Positions 8,213-39,429 of a DNA stretch of 64,000 bases are shown here, piece by piece (position 1 is the first letter of the stretch; every line of letters starts with the position of its first letter). The notes below the pieces were generated by a model, which searched no databases, was not told the origin of the DNA, and was given only the letters and a program-made list of their open reading frames with translations. Origin of the DNA: Gammaproteobacteria bacterium (GTDB lineage Bacteria; Pseudomonadota; Gammaproteobacteria; UBA4575); the NCBI GenBank assembly GCA_965221955.1, contig CBDCTA010000018.1, positions 160,001 to 224,000 of the forward strand, read 5' to 3'. Both the position numbers and the translations under genes were made by a program.

Positions 8213-9970
8213 ATGAGTACGACGAATGATGCCCTGGCGAAATGGGTAGAAGAGGTAGCGGCACTTACACAACCAGATAATATCGTGTGGTGTGATGGCA
8301 GTGATGCGGAATATGACCGCATGATTGATCAAATGCTAGAAACCGGAACCTTACTTAAACTTAACGAAGAAACACACCCTAACTGCTACTTACATCGTTC
8401 TGATCCTTCAGATGTAGCACGTGTTGAGCACTTAACTTTTGTTTGTTCAAAAGAAGAAGAAGATGCTGGTCCAAATAACCATTGGATGGATCCACAAGAA
8501 GCACATAAAAAACTTGATGATTTATTTGAAGGCTGTATGAAAGGCCGTACCATGTATGTGATTCCTTATTGCATGGGTCCAATTGATTCTCCTCTTTCTC
8601 GCAACGGTGTAGAAATTACAGACAGCCCTTATGTTGTAGCCAATATGAAAATCATGGCACGCATTGGAACACCTGCATTAAAGCGCATTGAGAAAGATGG
8701 CACATTTGTAAGAGGCATGCACTCAACAGGTGATTTAGATCCTGAAAAACGTTTTATTATGCACTTCCCTGAAGAGCTTCTTATTAGAAGTATTGGTTCA
8801 GGCTACGGTGGCAATGCACTGCTTGGCAAGAAGTGTCACGCATTACGTATTGCGAGCTGGCAAGCACGTACTGAGGGTTGGCTAGCAGAACACATGCTAA
8901 TCATGGGATTGGAAAGTCCAGAAGGCGAAACGCACTACGTTGCCTGCGCATTCCCTTCAGCATGCGGTAAAACAAATCTCGCAATGTTAATTCCACCCGA
9001 GCAATACAAAGGTTGGAAAGTAACAACCGTAGGTGATGACATTTGCTGGTTACATCTTCGCGATGATGGCCGTTTATGGGCCATCAACCCAGAATCGGGT
9101 TACTTCGGAGTGATTCCAGGCACAAACGAACATTCAAATAAAAATGCATATGAATGCTTAAAGCATGATGCAATTTTTACTAATGCTGGTACTACTGCAG
9201 ATAACCAACCTTGGTGGGAAGAAAAAGACGATGGTATGGAACCAACAACAGATTGGAAAGGCAATGCTTATGATCCTGATGTTGGCCCGGCTGCACATCC
9301 AAATTCTCGTTTCACAGTATCGGCTAAAAACAATCCAGTTTATTCACCGATGGCAGATGACCCGAATGGTGTACCTATTAGTGCAATTATTTTTGGTGGT
9401 CGACGTAAAGAATTGGCTCCTCTCGTATATGAAGCCAAAGACTGGGAGCACGGTGTATTAGTCGGTGCTTCATGCGCGTCTGAAATGACTGCAGCTGCAA
9501 TTGGTGGAGCCGGCCAAGTTCGTCGCGACCCAATGGCGATGAAACCATTCTGTGGTTATAACTTTGCTGACTACTTCGCACATTGGCTAACCTTTGGTCC
9601 TAAATCTGATAAGTTGCCAAAAATTTTCCACTGTAATTGGTTCCGCCGCGACAGCGATGGTAAATTTATGTGGCCAGGCTTTGGTGAGAACATGAGAGTT
9701 TTATCTTGGGTGCTTGACCGAGTAGAAGGCAAAGCAGATGCAAGAGAGACCCCCATAGGATTCTTGCCTAATGTGGATGATATTGACATTGAAGGTTTAG
9801 ATGTTTCTAAAGAAACCATGGAAGCTTTGCTCAGTGTAAACGCAGATCAATGGCAGGAGGAAGTGGCCGCGATAGGTGAGTACTTAGATGAATTTGGTGC
9901 TCGCACACCACAAGCCCTAAAAGACGAGTTAGCTAAAATTTCTACAGCATTGCAAGCCAAGGCTGCTTAG
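8213..9970 (+). CDS. pckG: Phosphoenolpyruvate carboxykinase (GTP)
   Basis: GSGYGGNALLGKKC, EGWLAEHM, FPSACGKTNLAM, GDDI, HPNSRF, NWFR. Confidence 0.97.
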   Translation: MSTTNDALAKWVEEVAALTQPDNIVWCDGSDAEYDRMIDQMLETGTLLKLNEETHPNCYLHRSDPSDVARVEHLTFVCSKEEEDAGPNNHWMDPQEAHKKLDDLFEGCMKGRTMYVIPYCMGPIDSPLSRNGVEITDSPYVVANMKIMARIGTPALKRIEKDGTFVRGMHSTGDLDPEKRFIMHFPEELLIRSIGSGYGGNALLGKKCHALRIASWQARTEGWLAEHMLIMGLESPEGETHYVACAFPSACGKTNLAMLIPPEQYKGWKVTTVGDDICWLHLRDDGRLWAINPESGYFGVIPGTNEHSNKNAYECLKHDAIFTNAGTTADNQPWWEEKDDGMEPTTDWKGNAYDPDVGPAAHPNSRFTVSAKNNPVYSPMADDPNGVPISAIIFGGRRKELAPLVYEAKDWEHGVLVGASCASEMTAAAIGGAGQVRRDPMAMKPFCGYNFADYFAHWLTFGPKSDKLPKIFHCNWFRRDSDGKFMWPGFGENMRVLSWVLDRVEGKADARETPIGFLPNVDDIDIEGLDVSKETMEALLSVNADQWQEEVAAIGEYLDEFGARTPQALKDELAKISTALQAKAA

Positions 9971-21953: not shown

Positions 21954-23904
21954 ATGGCAACTTCCAATCTTCCTGACAATCCACGCTTTCGCCTGGGTTT
22001 CCGCGACACCTTTCGGATCTTATGGCCTTACGGTAAACGAAAACTTTATGAGCCAGATTGAAGGAATTTGGTTTATTGTTTTTTACCTTATTATTTTCCA
22101 GCTACTCGTCTTACAGCTACCCATTGTATATGCCGCAATGATTGCCGTTGGAATATTTATTGTGGCACTTGGCTTGATGTTCTTCATGGAAGGGCTACGG
22201 CTGGGATTAATGCCACTTGGCGAAATCATTGGTAGTGTTTTACCACGTAAAAGTGGTATGCCACTTATTTTGATATTCGCTTTTTTACTCGGTGCAGGCG
22301 CAACATTTGCAGAACCTGCAATTGCAGTTCTAAAAGCAGCAGGCAGCGGAGTACGTGCTAGCGAAGCACCATTGTTATATAGCTTGCTAAATGATTTTTC
22401 TAGCCAGCTTGTAAGCAGTGTTGGTGTCGGTGTAGGACTTGCAGTGATGCTTGGCATACTTCGTTTTTTCTATGCATGGCCACTCAAGTATCTTGCCATT
22501 CCCGCAGTGATGGGATTACTTGGATTATCGTTTTATTTTAGTCAGGTACCAGCACTACGTGATGTGTTAGGCCTAGCATGGGACTGCGGCGCGGTTACAA
22601 CCGGGCCGGTTACAGTGCCTTTAGTGTTAGCACTTGGAATTGGCGTTTGTCGTGTTGTTAGCAGTGGCTCAGGCGGTGGCGGCGGACACTCAGGATTTGG
22701 AATTGTCACCCTAGCCTCTTTATTCCCAATTCTTGCCGTTTTGTTACTCGCATTATTCCATTATGCCAGTAACGACTATTATGGCGCTTCAAATTACAAA
22801 GGAAACAAAATTGTTGAGACGAAAACCGTAACTACACTCGATGATACTACATCACTTGATTCAAAACTCGAAGCCATAACAGAAGAAGAGTTTTCTACTT
22901 ACTTAAAAACAGGTGCTTTGCCAAATAGGTATGAATTAGATTTTGATGGAGGCAAAGCAGAACTCGTAGACGGAAAAATTGTTATTACAGATCCAAATCT
23001 TGTCGTGAAAAAGATTTACTCACGTGATTTTAAATTGATTAGTGAAAGCACTTGGGATGAAAATTATTCAATTTCAGATCAGTTACGGGAAGCTTTCGTT
23101 GGTGCATTACGCGCAATAATTCCTTTATGTTTATTTTTATATTTTGTCTTACGTCTAATACTGAATCAACGTTTAGATAAAGGAAATGACGTAGGAATCG
23201 GGGTTACTTTTGCACTAGTAGGAATGGCTTTATTTGGATTAGGGATTGCCCTTGGCCTCACTCCACTTGGTGGACAATTAGGAAGCAATATACCGCTTGC
23301 ATTTGCTGAAATTGTTCCATGGGGATTTGAACATGTTGAAGGACCATTGTTTGGCGATGGCCATGCAGGAAAATTAGTTGCAATAGGGTTTGCATTTTTT
23401 TTAGGCTATGGAGCAACCCTAGCAGAACCTGCTTTAAATGCATTGGGTGATACGGTTGAGCGTATAACGGTTGGCGCATTTCGCAAAAAACTTCTCATGC
23501 AAGCAGTTGCTATAGGTGTAGGTTTAGGAATTGCTGCAGGTATTGTGAAAATGGCCTACAACTTACCTTTAATTTGGATGCTAATCCCGCCATATGCCTT
23601 AGTCCTTCTTTTAACTTGGCGCGCACCAGACAGCTTCGTTAATTTTGGTTGGGATAGTGCCGGCGTAACGACTGGCCCTATAACAGTGCCTTTAGTTTTA
23701 GCCATGGGTCTTGGTGTAGGCGCAAACATACCTGGTGTAAGTGATGGATTCGGAATTCTAGCACTCGCATCTGTTGGACCGATTTTAACGGTACTATCTG
23801 TTGGACTATACACACAAAGAAATGAGAAAAAAGCTGAGAAAGAAAACTTACCTGACCCAGGAATTGAATTAGATAGCGATTCTACAGAATTAGGAACAAC
23901 ATAA
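21954..23904 (+). CDS. Tandem DUF1538 membrane protein (N-terminus joined by a +1 frameshift near 22040)
   Basis: Two repeats of AEPA...WD(C/S)(G/A)(A/G)VTTGP(V/I)TVPLVLA.G.G...GFGI; upstream ATG 21954 reads RLGFRDTFRILWPY, one frame off the main ORF. Confidence 0.8.
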
Positions 23905-23906
23905 TT

Positions 23907-25109
23907 ATGTTTAATACTAAACACGAAATATCACATATTACTGCTGTATTACCTACGAATTCAGCAGACACTGTCGTGAGCACACTTACTTCAAGAGAAG
24001 TAACTGATGTTTTAGTCTCACAAGCTCGCGGCACGTTACTTCGTGATCATTGGTGGAAGTCTTGGGTACCGCCTATTAGCCCTTCTAAAACCATGTTACA
24101 GATGGTTGTACCTGTACACGATGTTGACCGTGTTGTCGGATTAGTTATTGAAGAAGGAAAGTTAGACATGCAAGCATCTGGGGCTGTTTTTAGCACACCC
24201 TGTGAAAGTGCATACGTAGGTTCTTTGTTTCACAATTTACGCACAACTGAAACATTAGAGATCAACAATAATTCACATAAGCTTTCTGAAAATCTCTGCG
24301 CAATCTTCTGTAGCATTAGCCATGTGCAAAGCGATCGTGTAGCAAAAGCCGCAATCAATGCTGGCGCACATGGTCCAGTTGTTTATTACGCTGAAGGAAA
24401 AGGTCTACGAGACCGTCTTGGCTGGTTACGCATCACAAAAGATAGCGAACAAGAAGTTATGATGGTGCTTGCCGATAATTCCGATGTAGAGGAAATATTC
24501 ACAGCAATGGCTAAAGCTGGAGAATTTCATTTACCTGCACGTGGGTTCATGTATAGCCTACCTATCGATAAAGGCATGTTTAATTTGCCAAGTAGAATCG
24601 CTAATCCACATTACCCTGCTAATACACAGCAAATAATTCATGCCATTGACCACTTAACAGGTCATACTCATTGGCGGGATCAAGCAGTTTTCGATGTTGG
24701 TGGAGAAGGCAAAGGCACTGGTCTTAAGTTTTTACAACAAAACAAAGAATCCTTAACGAATCAAGTATGTTTCTCAGCTGTAGTAAATCGTGACCAATCA
24801 CAAGATTTTATGGATTTGATGTTGGATTCTGGCGCACCTGGTCTTAATGTTAGTTATTCACGATTTGTAGCTATGGGTGACGATGACTATGAACTCGCAC
24901 ATGCAAATGTAAATCATGAATATGCAACGATTCGTTGCATTACTAATCAAAAAACTGCTGACACAATTACACAAAAAATAGAGTCAAGTGCAGAACAAAA
25001 AGGAATTCAAGATCTTTGTGTTCTAACACATGCCGTGCCACGTATCGCAAAATATGTACCTGGTGAAAAAGATCATCGCAAAAACCCAAAATTAGCGATG
25101 GCTTCATAA
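23907..25109 (+). CDS. P-II-like regulator, apparently multi-domain
   Basis: Immediately follows DUF1538 gene; AAINAGAHG..AEGKG..EQEV..ARGFMYSLP and similar repeats. Confidence 0.6.
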   Translation: MFNTKHEISHITAVLPTNSADTVVSTLTSREVTDVLVSQARGTLLRDHWWKSWVPPISPSKTMLQMVVPVHDVDRVVGLVIEEGKLDMQASGAVFSTPCESAYVGSLFHNLRTTETLEINNNSHKLSENLCAIFCSISHVQSDRVAKAAINAGAHGPVVYYAEGKGLRDRLGWLRITKDSEQEVMMVLADNSDVEEIFTAMAKAGEFHLPARGFMYSLPIDKGMFNLPSRIANPHYPANTQQIIHAIDHLTGHTHWRDQAVFDVGGEGKGTGLKFLQQNKESLTNQVCFSAVVNRDQSQDFMDLMLDSGAPGLNVSYSRFVAMGDDDYELAHANVNHEYATIRCITNQKTADTITQKIESSAEQKGIQDLCVLTHAVPRIAKYVPGEKDHRKNPKLAMAS

Positions 25110-28580: not shown

Positions 28581-30272
28581 TCAGTTATTCATGGCATCAG
28601 TAGCAATACCAAGATAATTTTCACTTGCCATTAGTGTCGTTTCAGAAAATGTAGGATGTGGATGTATGACATGAGCTAAATCTTGCGGCGTTAAACCAAG
28701 ATCAATTGCTAAGGTAAGTTCTGTTATTAAGTCTCCCGCATTTGGACCAATGATTCCAGCTCCTAGAATTTTATCGGTTTCTGGATCAACTAATATTTTA
28801 GTCAAACCGATATTTTGACCATGGCATAATAATCGTCCGTTAATATTCCAATTTACTTTTCCAGTATTGTAATCAATATTATTTGATTTAGCTTTTTCCT
28901 CAGTTAACCCTACCCATGCGATTTCAGGGTCTGTATATACAACAGCAGGAATTGAGGGTAATCGAATGCTAGGAGAGCACCCCATGATTAGTTCTGCAAC
29001 AGCCTTCCCCTCATATACAGCCTTATGAGCTAACATAGGGCCACCTATTACATCGCCGATTGCATAAATACCTGAAACAGATGTTTGAAGATTTTCATCT
29101 ACTTCAATAAATCCGCGCTCAGTGCTTGTAATATTAATTCTTTCAATATTTAATTCGGTTGTTCGCGGTTTTCTCCCTATTGCCACTAGCACCTTATCAA
29201 CCTTCTCAAAATAATCTTTATTGGCCTTTGATATAGTTACGGCAATTCCATCCTTATCAAATTCTGCACAAGATACTTTTGATTGCAAGTAAAGATTTTC
29301 ATAGCCTTCTAGTTTCTCTTTCTCAAACGCAGATACAAGGTCAGGGTCTACTCCAAATAATATAGAACTTCCCAATTCAACTAATGTTACTCGAGACCCT
29401 AAAGCTTGATAGACACTAGCCATCTCCATACCAATAACCCCGCACCCGATTACCATTAATCGGTTCGGAATTTCTTCAATTTCAAGGGCATTATCCGATG
29501 ACATTACTTTATCATGCGTGATATCAAAGTGTTTATGCTGGATAGGATAGGAGCCTGTTGCAATTATCGCATGCTTAAATGCGACTACAGTTGTTTGCGC
29601 ATCACAGTTTATGCTTATTTTATTTTTTGACTCGAAGGAGGCACATCCTGTTAAGACAATTATATTTCGTTTACTAGCTAAATGCTTAATTCCACCTGTG
29701 AGCTTTGCAACAACTGAGTTTTTCCAGTTACGCAGCTTATGAATATCTATAGCAAAACTTTTGAAGCTAATTCCTAGCTGCGCACTATCTTCTACTTCTT
29801 GAATAACATTGGCAGCATGAAGCAAAGCTTTGGAGGGAATACACCCAACATTCAAACAAGTTCCCCCTAAGCTTGAATCTTTATTAACTAGTAAAACTTT
29901 TGCCCCAAGGTCCGCACAGCGAAATGCAGCTGTATATCCCCCGGGTCCAGCGCCTATAACAACAACATCAACATCATACGAATCTGTATTATCTGATGTA
30001 TTTACAGTTTCATTATCATTTTTTTCAGAAGAAGTAGTTTCTAGCTTTATTAACAAATGGGTTGATGTAATTACACTACCAACAATTACATTAACCAAGT
30101 TTACTACTCCTGGGTGTTCTGCTGAAATTTCCAGCGTTGTTTTTTCTCCCTCAACTACAACTAATAGATCACCTTGATTAACTACATCGCCTTTAGACAC
30201 ATGCACTTCGGTCACATCATATTCTGATGTGTCAAGTTCATCTGACACACAAACATCTATTATATTTGACAT
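28581..30272 (-). CDS. lpdA: Dihydrolipoyl dehydrogenase with N-terminal lipoyl domain
   Basis: Lipoyl domain (VEGEKTTLEI), GAGPGG, GGTCLNVGCIPSK, MLAHKA, HPHPTFSE. Confidence 0.92.
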   Translation of the reverse strand: MSNIIDVCVSDELDTSEYDVTEVHVSKGDVVNQGDLLVVVEGEKTTLEISAEHPGVVNLVNVIVGSVITSTHLLIKLETTSSEKNDNETVNTSDNTDSYDVDVVVIGAGPGGYTAAFRCADLGAKVLLVNKDSSLGGTCLNVGCIPSKALLHAANVIQEVEDSAQLGISFKSFAIDIHKLRNWKNSVVAKLTGGIKHLASKRNIIVLTGCASFESKNKISINCDAQTTVVAFKHAIIATGSYPIQHKHFDITHDKVMSSDNALEIEEIPNRLMVIGCGVIGMEMASVYQALGSRVTLVELGSSILFGVDPDLVSAFEKEKLEGYENLYLQSKVSCAEFDKDGIAVTISKANKDYFEKVDKVLVAIGRKPRTTELNIERINITSTERGFIEVDENLQTSVSGIYAIGDVIGGPMLAHKAVYEGKAVAELIMGCSPSIRLPSIPAVVYTDPEIAWVGLTEEKAKSNNIDYNTGKVNWNINGRLLCHGQNIGLTKILVDPETDKILGAGIIGPNAGDLITELTLAIDLGLTPQDLAHVIHPHPTFSETTLMASENYLGIATDAMNN

Positions 30273-30287
30273 TTATCTACACACAGA

Positions 30288-30324
30288 AAAGTCTCTCAAG
30301 ACCGCAGCAAACTTGAGAGACTTT
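30288..30324 (-). terminator. Intra-operon hairpin between osmC-like gene and lpdA
   Basis: AAAGTCTCTCAAG-N11-CTTGAGAGACTTT, 13-bp perfect stem. Confidence 0.55.
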
Positions 30325-30388
30325 ATTTAGGAGGAGTATCTACTATGAATCTGCGGATATGTTGCTTTAGTTAATTTAATATAACTCA

Positions 30389-30919
30389 CTATGCAGCATT
30401 TGATACAGAGCCGTTAATGCTGACTTCTTTATCTACCTCAACACTTCTAACCATCATATCCAGCACAGGACACTGTGCATCAACAGCATTTGCTAATTGC
30501 TCTAATGACTCTTGGTCGGCTGGACTTTCAATCGATGTTTTATAAGTAATTTTAGTAAAGCCTGGTGGAACTCCATCACCCATCCCTAATAATCCACGAA
30601 CATCAAGGTCACCCTGTAATTTCACGGAACATTTTGTTAACGGAATTCCCATAACCGAAGCCAGTGCTGCATACATTATTTCCTGACAAGTACCTAATGC
30701 TACTAATACCATCTCAACTGGGCTTGGCCCTAAATCACTGCCACCAAACGGTGGTGGCTCATCAATAGTTATCGTTGGAAATTTTCTGACATTTGCTGTG
30801 CAACGTACATCTTCTTCCCAATTTGTTGATACATCATATTTAAACTGACCAGATTTTGGGTTAGCAGTAACGCCTTCAATTATTTTTGTAACTGCATTTT
30901 TAATATCTTCTTGAGACAT
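30389..30919 (-). CDS. OsmC/Ohr-family protein
   Basis: IDEPPPFGGSDLGPSPVEMVLVALGTC and QCPV (both Cys retained). Confidence 0.9.
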   Translation of the reverse strand: MSQEDIKNAVTKIIEGVTANPKSGQFKYDVSTNWEEDVRCTANVRKFPTITIDEPPPFGGSDLGPSPVEMVLVALGTCQEIMYAALASVMGIPLTKCSVKLQGDLDVRGLLGMGDGVPPGFTKITYKTSIESPADQESLEQLANAVDAQCPVLDMMVRSVEVDKEVSINGSVSNAA

Positions 30920-30948
30920 GTCTAACTCCTGAATTATTTATATTTTAT

Positions 30949-32220
30949 TTAAAATTTAATCGTCCATGCGATATCTGCATCAAAACCTGACTCGTATCCT
31001 ATTCGTGTCCCTTCTCCTACCTGACTAAATAAGTCACCACTTCCGTCATCTTTTTCAGTGTGACCTAATTTGTACACGATACTTGCAGCGATTGAGTTTC
31101 TTTTAGTTTTACCGAATGCATATTCACCACCAGCAGCAATACTAGTTTGATATACAGTTGGAGCTAATGAGTTTGCAAAGACAACATCAGATCGAACGGG
31201 TGATCTTCCATAATTGACACCCGCTCGCAAAGTAATGTTTGGTGTGTATTTATATTGTGTGCCTAAACCTACGGTGTGTTGATCAACGTAACCAAAGCCG
31301 CCTTCAGTGGGCTCTTTTTCAAAAAGTCTAATTTCTTCCCACCCAATCCATTTGTAATCAAGTGTAAGATCCCATTTTGGTGTGACATGCCATGCAAGCC
31401 CTACTCGAAATTCAGGCGGTAATTCAAAATCTGGAATAACATCTTTATATGGACCAAATTCTTCAAAGCGTGTTTTTGCTTGATAGGCGACACCAACAGA
31501 CCATTGATCATTAAAGTCATAGATCAAGCCTACATGTGGTGCATATCCATATGAAATTTCAAGATCACCACTGCCTTCTGTTTGAGGAAAAGCAGCAGGA
31601 GTTGCACTTGGTGTGGGAACCGCAAAATCTCCAGAAAAGAAGGCCGCACTTATTTGCAATGAAGCGCCTAGGGTAAGGTTTTCGTACAAATCATAAGATA
31701 CGGCCGGAACGGCTTTGAGTACAAACAAGAAGGATTCAGTATCATAATCTTGATCGCCTTCAAGTAACGCAGGATTCAATCTTGGTGTTTCGTACTGGGC
31801 ACCTTCACCTGCGACACCTGCAATGGTGGCTCCAAATGCCCACTTAGAATCCTCAGCTTTATATGACACTCCAGAGAAAGGAGTTATATAAACAGTTTGA
31901 CCACTTTTTTCTTTACCAGAGTTAGGATTAGCGACACCTGCTCCTACTGTATTTCGCAAGTCTCTAAAGCGTTCTGCTTTTAACCAATGTGCACCTATGT
32001 CAACATGATTCCCTAACTTACCCAAACCTGCTGGGTTAACTAAAATTGTTGAGGTATCAACAGGTAATGCCCCATTTGCACCCCCCATTGCTCTATTTCT
32101 TGGACCAACGCCATAAAAAATTAAACCATTAATAGCCATTGCATCGGTTGCAATAATTGAAACAAAAACCACAAGGCCAATAAGATATTTATAAATATTA
32201 TTTTTTATATAGTTCTTCAT
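30949..32220 (-). CDS. OmpP1/FadL/TodX-family outer-membrane channel
   Basis: Signal peptide; NGLIFYGVGPRNRAMGG..VNPAGL hatch motif; LRAGVNYG; C-terminal Phe. Confidence 0.88.
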   Translation of the reverse strand: MKNYIKNNIYKYLIGLVVFVSIIATDAMAINGLIFYGVGPRNRAMGGANGALPVDTSTILVNPAGLGKLGNHVDIGAHWLKAERFRDLRNTVGAGVANPNSGKEKSGQTVYITPFSGVSYKAEDSKWAFGATIAGVAGEGAQYETPRLNPALLEGDQDYDTESFLFVLKAVPAVSYDLYENLTLGASLQISAAFFSGDFAVPTPSATPAAFPQTEGSGDLEISYGYAPHVGLIYDFNDQWSVGVAYQAKTRFEEFGPYKDVIPDFELPPEFRVGLAWHVTPKWDLTLDYKWIGWEEIRLFEKEPTEGGFGYVDQHTVGLGTQYKYTPNITLRAGVNYGRSPVRSDVVFANSLAPTVYQTSIAAGGEYAFGKTKRNSIAASIVYKLGHTEKDDGSGDLFSQVGEGTRIGYESGFDADIAWTIKF

Positions 32221-32363
32221 ACTTCCTCCCTACTTGTTAGGAAGGTATTAAACCTTTACGAAGATGCTATTTATATACGGGCAATTACTTCATGTAATTG
32301 TGTTAATACGATTTAAATTAAGTGATGATATAGAAATATATTGTAGTTAGTACGTACTTTGAA

Positions 32364-32396
32364 CGTAAAAGTACGTATAAATATAGTATTTATACG
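32364..32396. promoter_or_regulatory. Tandem CGTA-N4-TACG boxes upstream of fadL-like gene
   Basis: CGTA-aaag-TACG at 32364 and aGTA-ttta-TACG at 32385 (21 bp apart). Confidence 0.55.
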
Positions 32397-33019
32397 CTTA
32401 AATCGTTTTGACTTTTTTCAATTTGCAATAAATTAACTAAAAGTTCTTGCGATGTTTTTGCATTCATCTTTTTTAAGATACTTGAGCGATGTCCCTCAAT
32501 AGTGCGATGACTAACATTCATTTTTTTAGCAATTTCTTTTGAACGCAAACCTTCTACAATATAATTACATACTTCTTTCTCTCGATCTGTTAGTTCATCA
32601 TAGAGCGTGTTGAACTTTGATTGCTCAGAAAAGGATTTTCTAGCCTGTATATCTAGTTTAATTGCTTTACTAATACGGTCCAGAAGTGTTTGGTTTCGAA
32701 ATGGCTTTTCAATAAAATCGATTGCACCTTTTTGAATTACTTCAACAGCCATGGGAATATCACCATGTCCAGAAATTATGATAACTGGTAATTGTATATT
32801 TCTATCAATCAACCATTCCTGCAGCTCTAAACCGCCCATTCCATTCATACGAACATCTAAAATTAGTATAGATGGTATTTTTGCATCAAAAGTTGATATG
32901 AATGACTCTGCAGATTGATGACTAACTGGGTTAAGCCCAATAGACTCTACTAATTTAGCCACAGCATCACGTACCGCAGCATCATCGTCAATTATATGTA
33001 TTATGTAATCTTCATGCAT
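32390..33019 (-). CDS. FixJ/TtrR-family response regulator
   Basis: IIDDDAAVR, LDVRM, SGHGDIPMAV, DFIEKPF, LTDREKEV..SHRTIEGHR. Confidence 0.93.
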   Translation of the reverse strand: MHEDYIIHIIDDDAAVRDAVAKLVESIGLNPVSHQSAESFISTFDAKIPSILILDVRMNGMGGLELQEWLIDRNIQLPVIIISGHGDIPMAVEVIQKGAIDFIEKPFRNQTLLDRISKAIKLDIQARKSFSEQSKFNTLYDELTDREKEVCNYIVEGLRSKEIAKKMNVSHRTIEGHRSSILKKMNAKTSQELLVNLLQIEKSQNDLSV

Positions 33020-34232
33020 ATTGCTTTTCTAGGTTTGAAACGCTATTTACATTGCTTAGCGAAAAGATAAATTCTGTTCCTAAGTTATTGCTTTCTTTAA
33101 TCCAAATATTTCCTTTATGAGCTTTAATTATAGACCTACAGATAGAAAGACCCATACCCAGTCCATCGCGCTTAGTTGTAAAGTAAGGATTAAGAACTTG
33201 AGATCTGTTTTGCTCAGAAATGCCTCCACCATTATCTTTTACACTTACTAAGACATTGTTATCAGAATTACTTTGAGCATTTATATAAATCTCTCGCCTT
33301 CTGAAATCATTTGGCATCGCTTCAGTTGCGTTTTTAATTAAATTAATGAAAACGTGCTCTAACTGTACTCGATCACCAATCACTAATGGTAGGTTTTTGT
33401 CTGTTTGAAGTATCAGATTGGTTTTATGTTGTTCAAGGAAATAATTAATCATTAATTTAACATCAACAAGCAGTTCATTAAGATCAACTTCAGTGAAATT
33501 CATATCCCGTTTGCTTGCCAAACTTCTAATCCAAGATACAATTTGACTAGCTCTCTGTGCTTGTTCTGATATCAAGTTCAATGTTTCTGATATAGACTCT
33601 GAACCGGAATCATTTGTCTTAAGCAATGTATTACACGTTTCTGCATAGCTTGAGATAGCACATAATGGTTGATTCAATTCATGGGCAATTCCAGATGCGA
33701 CCTCACCCATCGTGCTAACTTTGCATACATGGTCAAGCTCAAGTTGACGTTTTTGTAGCTTTCGCTCAAGTTGCATCCTTTCTGTTACGTCGCGTGTTAT
33801 TGCCAGTAGAGCAGTTATTTGTTTGTTTTGGTCACGCAAAGGAACAGCATTTGACTCCAACCAACGTTCAGTACCTTTTTGACCACGTATTTTAAATGTC
33901 ATGCTTTGATGCATACCATTAAATACATTTTCAGTTAATTGTTTATATTGCGGATGATGCTCACTACTAATAAACTCATATACCGTTTTACCTAATACAT
34001 CTGTAGCATTTTCTACTTCAAGTAAATTAAGCCCTGCCTGATTCATTTCAAGCACATAACCATCTTTATCTTGAAGTTTTACGCACTCAGGTTGCGACTC
34101 GATAACTGTCGTCAATCTTATTTCTTTTTCTTTTAATTTTTTTCTTATATTAAGAAGAATGATCAAGAGTATTGATAACGTTGCTATCAATAAAAAAATA
34201 GCTCCAAAGTAAACGAAGGGAACACTGGCCAT
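33012..34232 (-). CDS. PAS sensor histidine kinase (FixL-like)
   Basis: N-terminal TM, PAS (SQPECVK..MNQAGL), IAHELNQPL, DRVQLEHVFINL, GLGMGLSIC. Confidence 0.92.
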   Translation of the reverse strand: MASVPFVYFGAIFLLIATLSILLIILLNIRKKLKEKEIRLTTVIESQPECVKLQDKDGYVLEMNQAGLNLLEVENATDVLGKTVYEFISSEHHPQYKQLTENVFNGMHQSMTFKIRGQKGTERWLESNAVPLRDQNKQITALLAITRDVTERMQLERKLQKRQLELDHVCKVSTMGEVASGIAHELNQPLCAISSYAETCNTLLKTNDSGSESISETLNLISEQAQRASQIVSWIRSLASKRDMNFTEVDLNELLVDVKLMINYFLEQHKTNLILQTDKNLPLVIGDRVQLEHVFINLIKNATEAMPNDFRRREIYINAQSNSDNNVLVSVKDNGGGISEQNRSQVLNPYFTTKRDGLGMGLSICRSIIKAHKGNIWIKESNNLGTEFIFSLSNVNSVSNLEKQYA

Positions 34233-34345: not shown

Positions 34346-34379
34346 CGTAGAACTACGCATTTCTCATAGTATAAATACG
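34346..34379. promoter_or_regulatory. Tandem CGTA-N4-TACG boxes upstream of the sensor kinase
   Basis: CGTAG-aa-CTACG at 34346 and aGTA-taaa-TACG at 34368 (22 bp apart). Confidence 0.55.
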
Positions 34380-34709: not shown

Positions 34710-35222
34710 TCAGCACTTTCTCCACAAATTAAATAACTGTGAAATAATTATGATTATTAAAACGTTTATCAATATTGGAGTTATAAGCAATTGGTATCCG
34801 AACTGATGCACTGCGGGGCCTCCTATTACTGCAAATAAAGTAGTAGCGCCAGCAGGAGGGTGTGTGCAACGAGCGTAGTACATGGCAGTAATTGAAACGC
34901 CTACTGCTGCACCAGCCGCAATCAAGTCAACACTAATATATTTCGCACAAGTAATACCAATAAATCCTGAAATTAAATGGCCGCCAAGCACATTCCATGG
35001 TTGTGTCAAAGAACTATATGGTGCTGCAAAAAGCAAGACTGCTGACGAGCCCATTGACGCAATAATGAATAGAGCAGTCATCTCGTTATAAATATAGATA
35101 TTACAAATAAAATAAATGCTCGCGATCCCAATAAAGCCTCCGAGACCGGACATGAATCCTTCAATATGATTGAGCGACTGTGTATGTACGCCCAACACTT
35201 TGAGTAATTTATTTTCCTTCAT
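34710..35222 (-). CDS. HPP family membrane protein
   Basis: ASMGSSAVLLFAAPYS.LTQPWNVLGGH and CTHPPAGAT. Confidence 0.92.
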   Translation of the reverse strand: MKENKLLKVLGVHTQSLNHIEGFMSGLGGFIGIASIYFICNIYIYNEMTALFIIASMGSSAVLLFAAPYSSLTQPWNVLGGHLISGFIGITCAKYISVDLIAAGAAVGVSITAMYYARCTHPPAGATTLFAVIGGPAVHQFGYQLLITPILINVLIIIIISQLFNLWRKC

Positions 35223-35260
35223 TATGGTTATTTATTTTATTAATTTGTATTATTTTTAAA

Positions 35261-35893
35261 TTACTTAAATATTTTGATAATCAAAAATAAAGAAAATATT
35301 CCTGCGACATATAAAATACTTTCACCTAATATTTTTTGTTCATCTATCAAGTAATAATTGCATAACCGAACAGGTGCCTCGATATACAACCATGCGAGCA
35401 CAAACAACATACTTATTAAGTTTGTACAAATAAATGATTTGGTTATTTCACCAGAGCTTTTCCAACCTAAAACAAATGTCGCGCCCAATAATAATGGCAA
35501 TGAAATAAATTTAAGCGCCTCAAATGAACCATGTTCCAGTGAAGCATCTAAGTTACGTGGCAACATCCAGAACATTGCAGTAGTCAGTGCGATAATGAGC
35601 AATGGCAATGCAAAATGATATGCAATGCGTAGTTGAAATTTATTTATAAAGTGGTTTATCATCCATGCACCACATAACACTAATAGTGGAATTTGCACCA
35701 ACATATGTGAAAGCATGGACTGTTCTAGGAAACTTCTTGCCACAGGTGTTGCTAGCAGCAAATAAATCACCAACACAAACCACAAGCAATATTTATTGAA
35801 CATAATAAAAACAGATGTGGATTTGGCTTTAACTAATGATGCATCTGCGTCATAGGCACTTGGTGATGTATAGAGTGTAGATTTAACTTGCAT
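35261..35893 (-). CDS. Membrane protein of the sNOR cluster (assembly-factor-like)
   Basis: Multi-TM; LEQSMLSHMLVQIPLL, FWMLPR, APVRLCNYYL; follows the SCO gene; start uncertain. Confidence 0.65.
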   Translation of the reverse strand: MQVKSTLYTSPSAYDADASLVKAKSTSVFIMFNKYCLWFVLVIYLLLATPVARSFLEQSMLSHMLVQIPLLVLCGAWMINHFINKFQLRIAYHFALPLLIIALTTAMFWMLPRNLDASLEHGSFEALKFISLPLLLGATFVLGWKSSGEITKSFICTNLISMLFVLAWLYIEAPVRLCNYYLIDEQKILGESILYVAGIFSLFLIIKIFK

Positions 35894-35899
35894 GTTACT

Positions 35900-36523
35900 T
35901 TACATCTGATGTGTAACATCTAAAGAAATGAAACTTAAGTCTTTCGCAATTGGATCGATCAATTCGTAATCATAAATTTTGGCAAGCTTTCCATATTGAT
36001 TTACTAAGTGTATGGCGCCATTGTGCTCAAACTGATTGTTGGGTGCAGGAATGACAACAATACCAAACACATCTAACAGCTCTTGTAAATCATGTTGTTT
36101 TTTTACAGTTGCAAATTTCCAGAATGTTGAATCAGCCTTCACAGATTCAGCGTACTTGGATAACTTTTTTGTGGTATCTCGTTCAGGATCAAAGCTTACC
36201 GTAAGCAGTACAACTTGATCTTGTAGATTTTTTTGTACTAATTTTTCTTGTATTTTAATAAAGCTTTGCGTCATCATCGGACAAATACCAACGCAATTAG
36301 TAAAAATAAAATCTACTAATACATGTTTTCCTTTCAAATCTTGAAAATAGATAACTTCATTACTTGAACTCATTAATGGAATATTTGGTATATCTACAGG
36401 GCTCTTCATTATTTGATGGCGTCGAAGACCCTCAGAGGTAAATACCGTTAAGCCATTAGTCGAATAAAATAGAAACACGACACATAAGGTCAGTGTTAGT
36501 GCCGTGTTAACTATTGCTTTCAT
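35900..36523 (-). CDS. SCO/SenC copper chaperone
   Basis: DFIFTNCVGICP (CxxxC), SFDPERD, conserved His in FEHNG. Confidence 0.93.
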   Translation of the reverse strand: MKAIVNTALTLTLCVVFLFYSTNGLTVFTSEGLRRHQIMKSPVDIPNIPLMSSSNEVIYFQDLKGKHVLVDFIFTNCVGICPMMTQSFIKIQEKLVQKNLQDQVVLLTVSFDPERDTTKKLSKYAESVKADSTFWKFATVKKQHDLQELLDVFGIVVIPAPNNQFEHNGAIHLVNQYGKLAKIYDYELIDPIAKDLSFISLDVTHQM

Positions 36524-36543
36524 ACAAATGTACTTATTTGCTA

Positions 36544-37980
36544 TTACGCAGGCTTAGATTTTAAACGAAAGATAAATCGTATGGTGAAGATAGTGGCTCC
36601 TAGTAAAACAAATATTGCAATGATCGATGCAATATTTGAATAGCTTTGCCACTCCGGGAAATGCACTGCAAATCTTCTAGCTACACCTTCTTTACCAGAA
36701 ACAAGAAACATGAATACAAATGCTGTGCCTGCAATGGCATACATCCAGAAACCACCGCGATCAAGAGCATTATCCTGTTGTTGTTTTTCGGCTTTTATTA
36801 AGTAATACATAAAACCAAATACCATCGCTACCATTCCAAGTATCAGATAGAAATGGAAATGGCCCGGCACCCACATAGTGTTGTGCATGACATGATTAAT
36901 CGCAATGGTTCCATCAATTACGGCTGGAACAACTCCACCGGCCCAGCCGAAGATTGATAAGAATAATAATCCAGACGCCATGTCCCATTTAATTCCGGAA
37001 CGATGCACAATAGCTAAAGTTCCCAACGTAGTCACTAGTAACACTGGGAATCCACTTGCATAAGAAATGACTTGACCCATCACCAACATCCAAGTAGGCA
37101 TAACAAAATCCATAAATAAATGATGAGGGTAAACGATCAACACCATAATCGTAGATGCTGTCCAAGCTGCTAAGAATACTTTATTCGATTTCCATGGGCG
37201 ATTTGTATAACGAGGCATAATTTCGTATACAGAAATGATCGCCATGTAGATAGTGGCGTTTATAAAAGTATGTCCAAAAAAGTAAATTAAGTTTTTGGCA
37301 AGTAGCGGATTAATGTTAAATGAAGGCACCAATATATTGATAATCATCATGATTAATATTGAAGCACCTGCAACTAATGCCAAGGTATTTACTATAGTAA
37401 CCATAGTACTAGCTACGACGGTAGGGGGCGGTGCATTTCCATCGTCATTACCAAACAACTGCGGCCAGCCTAATGACTTACCAAAACCACCGTATTTGGA
37501 AATAATTGCGCGCGCAGAATCCAAATAAAACAATAAGAAACCAACCCCAACTAACAACACGCCTGTAAGAAAAAGTACTGCCGAACCAGGTGACCATGCA
37601 CCTGCAGATTTTCCAGGTAAAGGATATAAGAATGTCCAAGCACCACCAAATTTTCCAAGAAAAATTGACGCTAAGATACAAACTACACCCGCAAGAAACA
37701 GCAATAAGTTAGTAACTAAAATACCGGTAGATAATTCAACATATTGTCGTAGGAAGTACCACATAATTGCAGCACCTCCTAAGCCGGCAATTCCCACCAT
37801 ACCCACACCATGTGCGGTCATTATTTGGTAAAACAAATCAGGGCCAAGGTTAACTGACCCACCCTGTGCAGCGCGCATGATTAAACCAAGCAACATCATT
37901 AGTACAACTACTGCTCCAAAGATTGCAATGTAAGCATAGATCGTACGCTTACCGCCTTCCGGAATGGTTAATGTATTCAT
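36544..37980 (-). CDS. Heme-copper oxidase superfamily subunit I, sNOR-type nitric oxide reductase
   Basis: MTAHG, WTFLYPL, FFGHTFIN (Asn at the cross-link Tyr position), YPHH, MHNTMWVPGHFH; GGAGG before ATG 37980. Confidence 0.8.
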   Translation of the reverse strand: MNTLTIPEGGKRTIYAYIAIFGAVVVLMMLLGLIMRAAQGGSVNLGPDLFYQIMTAHGVGMVGIAGLGGAAIMWYFLRQYVELSTGILVTNLLLFLAGVVCILASIFLGKFGGAWTFLYPLPGKSAGAWSPGSAVLFLTGVLLVGVGFLLFYLDSARAIISKYGGFGKSLGWPQLFGNDDGNAPPPTVVASTMVTIVNTLALVAGASILIMMIINILVPSFNINPLLAKNLIYFFGHTFINATIYMAIISVYEIMPRYTNRPWKSNKVFLAAWTASTIMVLIVYPHHLFMDFVMPTWMLVMGQVISYASGFPVLLVTTLGTLAIVHRSGIKWDMASGLLFLSIFGWAGGVVPAVIDGTIAINHVMHNTMWVPGHFHFYLILGMVAMVFGFMYYLIKAEKQQQDNALDRGGFWMYAIAGTAFVFMFLVSGKEGVARRFAVHFPEWQSYSNIASIIAIFVLLGATIFTIRFIFRLKSKPA

Positions 37981-37998
37981 TATTTTTTCCTCCATTAA

Positions 37999-38514
37999 TT
38001 ATTCACTTACAGTAATTTCAGCTACCATGGCATGGTGCGCGAGACCACAATATTCAAGACACAGAACTTTATAAGTCCCCGCCTTGGGGAAATTCACGAG
38101 TAAATTATTTTCGTAATCAGGCATCGCTTGAGTTTGCGCTAAAACATTCATATCTGGGTCATAAATTGCAAACCCATGATTTACGTCTGCTGAAGTCACT
38201 TTATATAAAACATGTTCACCTACCTTCGCTGTCATATCATCAATTTTCCAATACCATTGATAACCTATAGCGTTAACTGTTTTTGATGCGACAGGATCAC
38301 TAACATATGGCACTTTTGTTAAGGTAAACCCAATGACAGGAATCACTACTAATAAAAATAAAATAAACAACTTTTTTCTTAGACTGTATGCATTTTTTTG
38401 AATGGGCGCATATTCAGCAGAGCTACTTGATGCGCTCAATGCATATTTGATAAAAATTAACGCTAACAGTCCTACTAATATAATTGTCGTTATCCAGGAA
38501 ATATTTTGGTACAT
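37999..38514 (-). CDS. CuA-containing subunit II of the sNOR-type complex
   Basis: GYQWYW, SADVNHGF, CLEYCGLAHHAM; AGGAGAG before ATG 38514. Confidence 0.88.
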   Translation of the reverse strand: MYQNISWITTIILVGLLALIFIKYALSASSSSAEYAPIQKNAYSLRKKLFILFLLVVIPVIGFTLTKVPYVSDPVASKTVNAIGYQWYWKIDDMTAKVGEHVLYKVTSADVNHGFAIYDPDMNVLAQTQAMPDYENNLLVNFPKAGTYKVLCLEYCGLAHHAMVAEITVSE

Positions 38515-38524
38515 AATCTCTCTC

Positions 38525-38848
38525 CTATTCGCATGACAGGCTGGCATAGAATGCCGCCAAGTTTTGAATATCTTCTTCTGATAATGAAGCAACAATTGGA
38601 GCCATCATTGCATTTGTGCGACTACCATTTTTATAAGCCGTGATCGCACTCATTAAATACTGTTCTTTTTGGCCTGCTAAATTAGGGTAAATTGGTATTG
38701 GACTAATGCCCTCCGGCCCATGACATGCGGCACATACTGCAGATTTTTCTTTGCCTACTTGTACATCTTCAGCTTTAGATGGGGAAAAATTCACTGAAAA
38801 AATTACAAATAAAATAAATAAAGTTATTGTTTTATAAGGAAATATCAT
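38525..38848 (-). CDS. Monoheme cytochrome c (c553/c4-like)
   Basis: Signal peptide, CAACH, YPNLAGQ, axial Met in NAMM. Confidence 0.93.
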
Positions 38849-38860
38849 AATATTTACTCC

Positions 38861-38939
38861 TTATCCCATAAGATCTATTTAAAATAAATGGTTAAGCTAT
38901 ACATTATTCAATCTAAATTAAATAGATCTTATGGGATAA
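38861..38939. repeat. Perfect 22-bp inverted repeat containing NsrR-like half sites
   Basis: TTATCCCATAAGATCTATTTAA (38861-38882) and its reverse complement (38918-38939), 35-bp spacer. Confidence 0.9.
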
Positions 38940-38994
38940 AATTATAGAACTTAAAACTGATAGAGTGATTGAAACGTATATAAAGGATTTATTT

Positions 38995-39429
38995 ATGAGA
39001 GTGACAAAATTTTCAGATTATGCATTGCGAGTATTGATATATCTCGCAAGCAAACCTGACGATGAATTAACTACCATTTCACAACTTGCTGATGCTTATT
39101 CTATATCTGTGCATCATGTGCGAATGGTTGTTCATAAATTAGGCCAATTAGGCTATATCAATTGTGTTCAAGGTAAAGGTGGTGGAATTGAACTTGCGTA
39201 TGAACCCCGTGAGATTTCGATAGGTGATGTTATAAGTAATACAGAATCAGATTTTTACTTGGTTGAATGCTATAACCCTGAAGGTAATTGTTCCATTGTT
39301 AATGCTTGTAAGTTGCAGCATATATTAAATGATGCACTGAAAGCATTTTTAGAAACTTTAAATAAATATACATTGGAAGATATTACTAATAACAAAAAAA
39401 GTATTATGAGATTGTTGCCAGTAGCGTAA
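38995..39429 (+). CDS. nsrR: Rrf2-family NO-sensing repressor NsrR
   Basis: MRVTKFSDYALRVLIYLA, QGKGGG, three Cys (VECY..GNCSI..ACKL); divergent from the NO reductase cluster. Confidence 0.82.
   Translation: MRVTKFSDYALRVLIYLASKPDDELTTISQLADAYSISVHHVRMVVHKLGQLGYINCVQGKGGGIELAYEPREISIGDVISNTESDFYLVECYNPEGNCSIVNACKLQHILNDALKAFLETLNKYTLEDITNNKKSIMRLLPVA

Follow-up and report, generated by a model that had tools for sequence, protein, structure and literature searches.

A 64,000-nucleotide (nt) stretch of DNA from a marine gammaproteobacterium of the UBA4575 lineage (contig CBDCTA010000018.1, positions 160,001 to 224,000; hereafter the window) carries five open reading frames (ORFs), all on its minus strand, for a sensor kinase, a response regulator, an outer-membrane channel, an OsmC-family thiol protein and a dihydrolipoyl dehydrogenase (Lpd) with a lipoyl domain of its own. 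An earlier note on this DNA had pointed to the five co-oriented genes and to the lack of E1 or E2 genes around them, and both statements were borne out. From kinase to lpd, the genes specify a membrane-anchored PAS histidine kinase with a FixL-type kinase core (406 amino acids, 33012..34232; from Pfam, NCBIfam and solved-chain matches), a FixJ/NarL-type response regulator (209 amino acids, 32390..33019; Response_reg and GerE domains of Pfam), a TodX/FadL-family channel with a signal peptide and an N-terminal hatch (423 amino acids, 30949..32220; Toluene_X), a cytoplasmic OsmC-family thiol protein of the 2OPL-like subfamily (176 amino acids, 30389..30919; Pfam OsmC), and the Lpd with its lipoyl domain (563 amino acids, 28581..30272; TIGR01350 and Biotin_lipoyl). 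The kinase and regulator genes overlap by 8 nt (a gap of -8), and the gaps that follow measure 169, 29 and 116 nt. No E1, E2 or glycine-cleavage genes were found among the ORFs scanned between window positions 8213 and 53164, and the E2 domains (PF00198) of this genome lie on contigs C13, C22 and C12, with none on the 291-kb contig of the window. The five genes are best explained as a redox module under regulation of its own and not as part of a 2-oxoacid dehydrogenase.

The dihydrolipoyl dehydrogenase with a lipoyl domain

The window Lpd matches the TIGR01350 equivalog model with 505.2 bits against a cut-off of 408.8, and has the features of a dihydrolipoyl dehydrogenase, with the redox pair Cys139/Cys144 in the motif CLNVGC at residue 139 and the C-terminal motif HPHPTFSE at residue 537. 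Its N-terminus contains a lipoyl domain by the Biotin_lipoyl model (PF00364; 40.3 bits against 22.1). The lysine of the EGEKT motif, which the earlier note had described as retained, is Lys44 (codon 30141-30143); in all five of the fused Lpds compared, its alignment column is that of the lipoyl-lysine of the genome's own E2 proteins, and both Glu41 and Lys44 are invariant in 43 fused Lpds. The description therefore stands, and Lys44 is the predicted site of lipoylation.

This Lpd is an extra paralogue, the housekeeping Lpd being found next to E2 on contig C13. Fused lipoyl-Lpds amount to 1015 proteins at E <= 1e-100, and among the matches listed (the best 120 of the 1015) the window protein belongs to a small, long-branched group with four close relatives of 58-79% identity. 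In an Lpd tree from a quick search, the window clade, the clade of loci L046 and L048 and the type found on contig C2 (see below) make up an unresolved trichotomy with long branches, and the unfused Lpds of loci L041 and L080 are placed far outside the fused clade.

The OsmC-family protein

Membership of the OsmC superfamily is indicated by the Pfam profile (PF02566; 67.1 bits against a cut-off of 27.5) and by a predicted model with the OsmC fold and a predicted local distance difference test score (pLDDT) of 94.8. A Foldseek search with this model gave 58 PDB matches at E <= 0.001, those listed being OsmC/Ohr-family titles or unnamed structural-genomics entries; 2opl was on top with a TM score of 0.87, and E. 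coli OsmC and Ohr reached 0.52-0.58. By sequence, a search of the PDB recovered only 2opl (E 3.5e-17) and 9wo1. Judged from sequence and predicted structure together, the protein is a member of the OsmC superfamily that stands outside both of the characterised subfamilies, OsmC and Ohr. Members of its own subfamily that carry a genus name belong to Methylophaga, Sulfuriferula and Sulfuritalea.

The protein has four cysteines, and across 51 subfamily members Cys150 is invariant, Cys40 and Cys78 are at least 90% conserved and Cys97 is not conserved; Arg45 and Glu54 are invariant as well, and may correspond to the catalytic Arg and Glu of Ohr/OsmC. Profile alignment to solved structures places Cys78 and Cys150 on both family cysteine positions (9wo1, 1lql), and Cys78 is also aligned with cysteine positions of 2opl, 2onf and 1vla. 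Cys78 and Cys150 thus agree with the catalytic pair of the family, in which the first cysteine is on the long helix and the second in a Cys-Pro motif. What had been called a two-Cys OsmC-family protein is therefore correctly placed as to family and miscounted as to cysteines, four being present and three of them conserved. Cys40 stands five residues ahead of the invariant Arg45, and to our knowledge has no counterpart in characterised OsmC/Ohr enzymes. A tree of the subfamily from a quick search had weak support overall, with a single well-supported group (99) made up of loci in which osmC is followed by the barrel gene (L079, L080, L094, L042, L041, L081, L083). A search across the class flagged an in-frame TGA in the OsmC homologues of genomes G200 and G366; for G200 a selenocysteine was rejected, the TGA being the stop codon at the end of that protein. 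Prediction of a complex between the OsmC dimer and the lipoyl domain (residues 1-85), made without controls, scored 0.01 against a mark of 0.32.

The outer-membrane channel

The barrel protein matches Toluene_X (PF03349) with 80.9 bits against a cut-off of 29.7. Its predicted model (pLDDT 89.2) is closest in Foldseek to TodX (3bs0; E 9e-37, TM 0.68), with a TM score of 0.70 to FadL, and the hatch motif Asn62-Pro63-Ala64-Gly65 is invariant in 38 members of the subfamily, as befits a FadL/TodX channel. The NPA sequence is presumably a feature of the whole FadL/TodX family, and the title of PDB entry 2r4o ('delta NPA') hints likewise. In a large protein collection the subfamily comprises about 40 proteins of 40-82% identity. 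The earlier assignment to a FadL/TodX barrel holds for the family; by sequence, the nearest solved proteins are TodX, TbuX and CymD (1e-18 to 1e-15), not E. coli FadL (5e-5).

The two-component pair, a shared palindrome and a hairpin

The kinase is composed of PAS_4, HisKA and HATPase_c domains (Pfam) with one N-terminal membrane helix. The NCBIfam FixL model covers only its residues 143-393, with 190.1 bits against a cut-off of 850, leaving the heme-PAS part of FixL unmatched; the closest solved chains are the FixL kinase chimeras 8a7f and 4gcz (E ~1e-50). The regulator reaches 184.9 bits with the FixJ model (cut-off 255) and 162.4 bits with TtrR (cut-off 290). The pair thus falls outside the FixL/FixJ equivalogs, which include a heme-binding PAS domain, and the earlier term 'FixLJ-like' is apt for the architecture and the kinase core but does not extend to the heme-PAS part or to equivalog-level scores. 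Orthologues of the kinase, of 40-53% identity, adjoin the module in L040, L042, L046, L048, L079 and L080.

At 34346..34357, 114 nt upstream of the kinase start, lies the palindrome CGTAGAACTACG, the sole exact occurrence of CGTAG-N2-CTACG in the genome (2,693,489 bases, for which base composition predicts 1.3); this single occurrence by itself proves nothing. The exact palindrome was also present in 3 of 58 fetched loci (L040, L046, and L047, which is a copy of L046), where it is intergenic and flanks the barrel or kinase gene. A copy with one mismatch occupies the gap between the regulator gene and osmC in L080, and copies with two mismatches are found in L042, in L079 and, in the window, 144 nt upstream of the barrel gene (32364..32375). 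The window copy taken alone is within chance, the window having 10 matches at up to two mismatches against 9.6 expected; the 3,538 nt of module intergenic DNA contain nine such sites, compared with 9.6 expected per 64 kb. A dimeric LuxR-type regulator that binds the palindrome would be the natural reading, with the palindrome as candidate operator. The earlier proposal that the genes are under a two-component pair of their own thereby gains in silico support, from conserved adjacency and from the shared palindromic site.

A terminator-like hairpin with a 13-bp stem and a U-run (30281..30324, minus strand) lies between osmC and lpd, where folding of the 116-nt gap as RNA gave -28.1 kcal/mol (z -3.0). 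Hairpins of unrelated sequence, each with a U-run, likewise stand just before lpd in L046 and L048 (z -4.8 and -3.4, respectively). A scan for promoter and terminator consensus sequences found sites in numbers no greater than in shuffled sequence, and missed this hairpin. Because the hairpin is conserved in position, it is doubtful that lpd is co-transcribed with the barrel and osmC genes; these two appear to be the tight unit, with lpd expressed through read-through or under its own control. Of the single operon proposed earlier, the co-orientation is thus retained and the single transcript called into question.

Recurrence of the module in other genomes

Loci for comparison were gathered through two query families, the barrel and the OsmC protein, and all counts describe these samples rather than all genomes. 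Scans with the barrel alignment returned six loci from genome contigs and nine from metagenome contigs; with duplicates merged (L047 with L046, L049 with L048, and L050 and L051 with L041), ten distinct loci including the window were obtained, having barrels of at least 45% identity. In six of the ten, a gene of the OsmC subfamily adjoins the barrel gene: the window, L040 (from a Thiotrichales metagenome-assembled genome, MAG), L041 (Thiohalobacter MAG), L042 (Pelomicrobium sp. G1), L046 and L048. The full order of kinase, regulator, barrel, OsmC and lipoyl-Lpd is kept in L046 and L048, with identities to the window proteins of 78-79% for the barrel, 66-69% for OsmC, 48-53% for the kinase and 38-42% for Lpd. 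When OsmC served as the query instead, a profile search detected the subfamily in 16 of 400 genomes of the class, and 16 loci were fetched from the 15 foreign genomes; in L079, L080 and L081 the neighbour of osmC proved to be a remote TodX-family barrel (hhalign probability 97-99%).

There are accordingly nine independent loci that pair OsmC and barrel genes (the window, L040, L041, L042, L046, L048, L079, L080 and L081), in both gene orders, and this synteny is not a chance neighbourhood. The kinase and regulator genes are adjacent in seven of the nine (not in L041 and L081), a lipoyl carrier is encoded in seven, and an Lpd in five. In the window, L046 and L048 the carrier is part of the Lpd itself; L041, L042, L079 and L080 encode it separately, as a GcvH-like protein that contains an ES-x-K motif. 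The supply of lipoyl carrier and Lpd in two non-orthologous forms is hard to explain without a functional link. The module is found in records of Thiotrichales, Thiohalobacter and Pelomicrobium and in several genomes of the class to which the window belongs.

Paralogous clusters and sulfur genes

A paralogous cluster on contig C2 of the same genome (L011, 56000-72000; 4289-12577), of the order sfnG-msuE-...-osmC-osmC-acs-lipoyl-lpd, encodes the dimethylsulfone monooxygenase SfnG (551 bits against 383), an MsuE-like FMN reductase, a 106-residue ORF, a NUDIX protein, two OsmC proteins (one with Ser at the first Cys position), acetyl-CoA synthetase (Acs), a lipoyl-Lpd 45% identical to that of the window, and a 96-residue ORF. 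The OsmC and lipoyl-Lpd of this cluster are kept in all seven loci fetched, and the cluster is conserved in six relatives; their genes are directly adjacent in G017, and in G232 the OsmC paralogues adjoin SfnG as they do in the genome of the window. A third OsmC paralogue, on contig C8, adjoins a GST gene and is without an Lpd. A second TodX-like barrel is encoded on contig C22 (L013, 400000-412000; 5340-8704), in an operon for a DsrE2-like protein, the barrel, TusA and an SCP2-like protein with an ArsR-type regulator gene divergent from it, and its setting suggests an outer-membrane channel dedicated to sulfur species. Contig C28 (L097, 122000-141999; 6865-13478) carries MtoX-SCO1-MauG genes followed by two for AhpC/TSA-type redoxins; a second, tandem copy of mtoX is interrupted there by a stop codon, which leaves two pieces, of 278 and 134 residues.

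Sulfur-related and globin genes also adjoin the module in other loci. A methanethiol oxidase (NF052453; 730 bits, cut-off 650) is encoded in L079 together with SCO1/MauG, MauG and a redoxin. The neighbours in L081 are DsrE, a type III SQR and an MBL-fold protein; in L046 they include a rhodanese, with an HPP gene and a globin gene following lpd, and in L048 a truncated globin and DUF1326. The L046 globin resembles the globin domain of NO-inducible flavohemoprotein. The products of methanethiol oxidase are given as formaldehyde, H2S and H2O2 (PMC5739008). For Methylophaga thiooxydans grown on dimethyl sulfide (DMS) as compared with methanol, a published table of transcripts (PMC6548844, Table S6) gives values of 17350 vs 37 for mtoX, 2348 vs 15 for an ORF of 549 nt that had not been annotated before, 1469 vs 18 for a membrane protein of the TodX family, 1007 vs 15 for a dihydrolipoamide dehydrogenase, 601 vs 21 for a truncated globin and 454 vs 12 for Sco1; homology of these genes to those of the window is putative.

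The adjoining heme-copper operon

Directly upstream of the module, and co-oriented with it, is an operon (34710..38848, minus strand) that runs from a cytochrome c gene (38525-38848; Pfam) through a CuA subunit II (37999-38595; COX2 and NosZ CuA models), a heme-copper subunit I (36544-37995), SCO1/SenC (35900-36523; Pfam) and a 210-residue membrane protein (35261-35893) to an HPP protein (34710-35222; Pfam). Subunit I keeps the PHH and GHFHF motifs and lacks the active-site tyrosine, having GHTFIN (His-x3-Asn) in place of the His-x3-Tyr of oxygen reductases. Heme-copper enzymes without this tyrosine occur in four of the nine module loci (the window, L041, L042 and L080), the last three having AHNLME (His-x3-Glu). 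As described by Murali et al. 2024 (PMC11214002), absence of the tyrosine marks heme-copper families that do not reduce oxygen and are putatively nitric oxide (NO)-reducing. A regulator gene of the Rrf2 family (38965..39429, plus strand; Pfam Rrf2 121 bits) is divergent from the operon, its best NCBIfam model being NsrR (134.1 bits, cut-off 182), with RirA at 115.4 bits. By its sequence, the whole of 34710-39429 looks like the locus of a putative NO reductase of the sNOR type. Between the Rrf2 and cytochrome c genes, at about 38860-38940, is a long inverted repeat, ATCCCATAAGATCTATTTAA ... TTAAATAGATCTTATGGGAT, whose arms measure some 20 nt each and which may be the Rrf2 operator. Elsewhere in the window, at 22048-25109, a DUF1538 membrane protein (618 amino acids) is followed by a 400-residue protein with an N-terminal P-II domain.

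Proposed mechanism and alternative explanations

Lipoylation of the Lpd, electron transfer to OsmC, the substrate of OsmC, the direction in which molecules would pass the barrel and the signal perceived by the kinase are read here from sequences, predicted models and gene neighbourhoods. Electrons from NADH would pass to the FAD of the extra Lpd and to its Cys139/Cys144 disulfide, and from there to a lipoyl group carried by Lys44 of the same protein; the arm, now in the dihydrolipoyl form, would then re-reduce a Cys78-Cys150 disulfide of OsmC, and the OsmC thiols would be spent on a small oxidant in the cytoplasm. The TodX-type barrel would pass a small hydrophobic molecule, be it substrate, inducer or product, and the PAS kinase and FixJ-type regulator would switch the set on, probably through CGTAG-N2-CTACG. 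This relay from NADH through Lpd and lipoyl to OsmC is regarded as probable, and the module would probably serve to remove a reactive by-product or a sulfur compound. A hydroperoxide or peroxynitrite is the likeliest acceptor of those considered, but is a tentative assignment by analogy with characterised OsmC/Ohr enzymes, plausible rather than probable; Ohr is said to reduce fatty-acid hydroperoxides and peroxynitrite. The peroxidase could then protect the cell while it oxidises volatile organosulfur compounds and sulfide, and also under nitrosative stress. Taken whole, with relay, channel, two-component control and a peroxide-type acceptor, this is the explanation favoured here, and it falls only narrowly short of being probable. 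Counted in its favour are the intact catalytic features of all the parts and the peroxide- or NO-related neighbours, namely MtoX, SfnG with its FMN reductase, heme-copper enzymes without the active-site tyrosine, the NsrR-like regulator of the window, and the globins of L046 and L048.

The earlier note had arrived at a self-contained chain from NADH through FAD and lipoyl to OsmC, dedicated to an imported hydrophobic substrate such as a lipid hydroperoxide, an organosulfur compound or sulfane sulfur. This proposal is supported in part. The chain is strengthened by the repeated encoding of OsmC with a lipoyl carrier and Lpd in their two forms and by the retention of the paralogous OsmC and lipoyl-Lpd in seven of seven loci. 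An imported substrate is favoured by the conserved barrel adjacency in nine loci, its identity being left to the readings weighed below, and the organosulfur or sulfane sulfur option by the neighbouring MtoX, SQR/DsrE, rhodanese and SfnG genes.

Several observations weigh against the favoured explanation. It is not obvious why a peroxidase should need a channel for import, yet no partner of OsmC is more constant than the barrel, and the sulfur-gene neighbourhoods fit a substrate with a sulfur-sulfur bond at least as well as a peroxide. The OsmC-like protein is outside canonical OsmC/Ohr, it scores 79.6 bits with the NCBIfam model NF041052 ('OsmC-related (seleno)protein'), under the cut-off of 95, and its nearest structure, 2opl (GSU2788), is an uncharacterised protein with Ser at the second Cys position. 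The terminator-like hairpin is positioned between osmC and lpd, lpd is without a clear ribosome-binding site, and the exact palindrome in the window precedes the kinase gene, not the barrel gene. Among 55 other genomes of the family no orthologue of the barrel was found, the best matches being 30-32% identical, and the OsmC orthologues most like that of the window, of 74% identity in G016 and 67% in G011, have no barrel, FixJ-type pair or Lpd gene beside them. In four of the ten barrel loci (L043, from a Chlamydiales MAG, L044, L053 and L052) the barrel has no OsmC neighbour; it adjoins formaldehyde-detoxification genes in L052, and in the planctomycete-type loci L044 (1992-11192) and L053 (2557-10268) a barrel orthologue of 45-50% identity is accompanied by a gene for selenocysteine synthase (SelA) and by a set of genes for 2-hydroxyacyl-CoA-dehydratase-like (HGD-D) proteins and BcrAD/BadFG ATPases.

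The same relay could serve another acceptor, as an NADH-dependent reductase of a hydrophobic compound with a sulfur-sulfur bond that enters through the TodX-type channel; candidates would be dimethyl disulfide or trisulfide, organic polysulfanes and elemental sulfur. Cys78 would attack the sulfur-sulfur bond, Cys150 would resolve the mixed disulfide, the lipoyl-Lpd would recycle the protein, and the released thiol or sulfide would feed methanethiol oxidase and the enzymes of sulfide oxidation. Import becomes sensible if the compound is the substrate, and sulfur genes adjoin the module (MtoX in L079, DsrE/SQR in L081, rhodanese in L046) while the paralogues adjoin SfnG, in the genome of the window and in G232. 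The genome further has its MtoX-SCO1-MauG genes on C28 and a barrel in a DsrE2-barrel-TusA sulfur-relay operon, and the subfamily is represented in Methylophaga, Sulfuriferula and Sulfuritalea. We know of no reduction of a disulfide or polysulfane by an OsmC-family protein, though no search was aimed at this point, and this counts against such an acceptor; the tyrosine-less heme-copper enzymes, the NsrR-like regulator and the globins also point elsewhere. Four transcripts that rise strongly with mtoX in Methylophaga thiooxydans on DMS (those of the TodX-family protein, the dihydrolipoamide dehydrogenase, the unannotated ORF and the truncated globin; PMC6548844), from what are at most putative homologues of the window's genes, and an OsmC-like protein next to SQR that is described as induced in Rhodococcus disulfide catabolism (PMC5157978) speak for this explanation, but the authors of both studies read the induced peroxidase-type proteins as stress defence. 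According to a 2026 review, the dimethyl disulfide (DMDS) reductase, EC 1.8.1.21, is still without an identified gene (PMC13039779). A reductase of sulfur-sulfur bonds is on balance unlikely, if not strongly so, and the narrower proposal that the module is the missing NADH-dependent reductase of dimethyl disulfide (or of a methyl polysulfane), with its own uptake channel and sensor, is quite unlikely.

The neighbourhood upstream would be accounted for if the region were a nitrosative-stress island, in which the tyrosine-less enzyme removes NO, OsmC and lipoyl-Lpd remove peroxynitrite or S-nitroso compounds, and the PAS kinase senses NO or low oxygen. The His-x3-Asn of the window subunit I is in keeping with this, since the missing tyrosine is the mark of putative NO reduction, but the sNOR class is itself described as biochemically uncharacterised (PMC11214002). 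The regulator divergent from the heme-copper operon is NsrR-like, although under the NsrR cut-off (134 against 182), and His-x3-Glu enzymes accompany the module in L041, L042 and L080, although such an oxidase is found in only four of the nine module loci. The window order of subunit II, subunit I, SenC and membrane ORF resembles that of the norSY-senC-orf1 cluster of ammonia oxidisers, and a flavohemoprotein-like globin gene and an HPP gene follow lpd in L046. NO requires no channel, however, and the sulfur contexts would be left unexplained, so that an island of this kind is improbable. It is very improbable that the genes are neighbours without a shared task, the Lpd serving ordinary lipoyl enzymes, OsmC general stress and the barrel fatty acids. 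The hairpin and U-run that separate osmC and lpd would agree with this, as would the solitary OsmC orthologues of G016 and G011 and the commonness of fused lipoyl-Lpds (1015 proteins at E <= 1e-100), but the functional set recurs in nine loci of several orders, with differing gene orders and non-orthologous Lpd and carrier forms, a separate housekeeping Lpd stands next to E2, a palindrome is common to the promoters, and the barrel is TodX-like rather than FadL-like.

Comparison with known systems

The single parts of the module and the principle of lipoyl-dependent OsmC are known, and the conserved module appears undescribed in the open-access literature, no description of a barrel-OsmC-lipoyl-Lpd module having been found in that part of it which was searched; among the papers listed, the one that mentions both OsmC and FadL concerns an avian E. 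coli vaccine. The combination that appears undescribed joins a channel of the TodX type to an OsmC of the 2opl type, a lipoyl carrier and Lpd dedicated to it, and a FixJ-type pair with a shared candidate operator, and it recurs next to genes of methanethiol and sulfide oxidation and to heme-copper enzymes without the tyrosine. It would account for the otherwise unexplained rise, by 60- to 80-fold, of transcripts annotated 'dihydrolipoamide dehydrogenase' and 'porin' when Methylophaga grows on DMS, and it gives candidates for a gene-less step of the marine sulfur cycle as well as a candidate operator for a new FixJ-type regulon. Were the module a DMDS reductase, it would provide the gene for the orphan EC 1.8.1.21, and would extend the OsmC fold to disulfides and the FadL family to volatile sulfur compounds.

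As in FixL/FixJ, the kinase has a FixL-like dimerization and histidine phosphotransfer domain and ATPase core, and the regulator has a FixJ-like receiver with a LuxR-type output domain; unlike FixL/FixJ, both proteins are under the NCBIfam equivalog cut-offs, and the FixL model covers the kinase half only. The barrel is a FadL-family protein of the 14-strand type with a hatch, nearest by sequence to TodX, TbuX and CymD, although identity to TodX is only about 20%. The todX gene adjoins todST, just as the window barrel gene is next to those for a PAS kinase and a NarL/FixJ-type regulator. Unlike the tod systems, no aromatic-catabolic genes are near the window barrel, its partner is a thiol redox protein, and the kinase PAS domain has no specific likeness to TodS among the solved-chain matches listed.

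The window Lpd has the same architecture and the same catalytic motifs as other Lpds with an N-terminal lipoyl domain, but its gene adjoins osmC and a channel gene, not the genes of a dehydrogenase complex. Ohr of Xylella reportedly has lipoyl-dependent peroxidase activity, and an OsmC of Trichomonas is said to act with H and L proteins. The titles of PDB entries 6ebg and 6ebd refer to an interaction of Ohr/OhrB with dihydrolipoamide, and a 2026 preprint describes a GcvH-like protein of Hyphomicrobium denitrificans (GcvH_1) as probably donating electrons to a neighbouring OsmC. As in these lipoyl-dependent Ohr/OsmC systems, the gene for an OsmC-fold protein with a pair of family cysteines is accompanied by genes for a lipoyl carrier and a dihydrolipoyl dehydrogenase and lies apart from any for E1, E2 or the catalytic subunits of glycine cleavage, and the proposed path would likewise lead from NADH through Lpd and lipoyl to OsmC. 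Unlike them, the OsmC protein is of the 2opl-like subfamily (about 176-185 amino acids), with an extra N-terminal helix and a third conserved cysteine, the window carrier is fused to Lpd, and a channel and a dedicated two-component system are its partners. In the lipoyl-dependent chemistry known for OsmC and Ohr, the enzyme makes use of lipoyl proteins that belong to central metabolism, or of an H protein, whereas here the whole relay would be a transferable, separately regulated unit that comes with an outer-membrane channel and adjoins genes for the oxidation of methanethiol or sulfide or, probably, for the reduction of NO.

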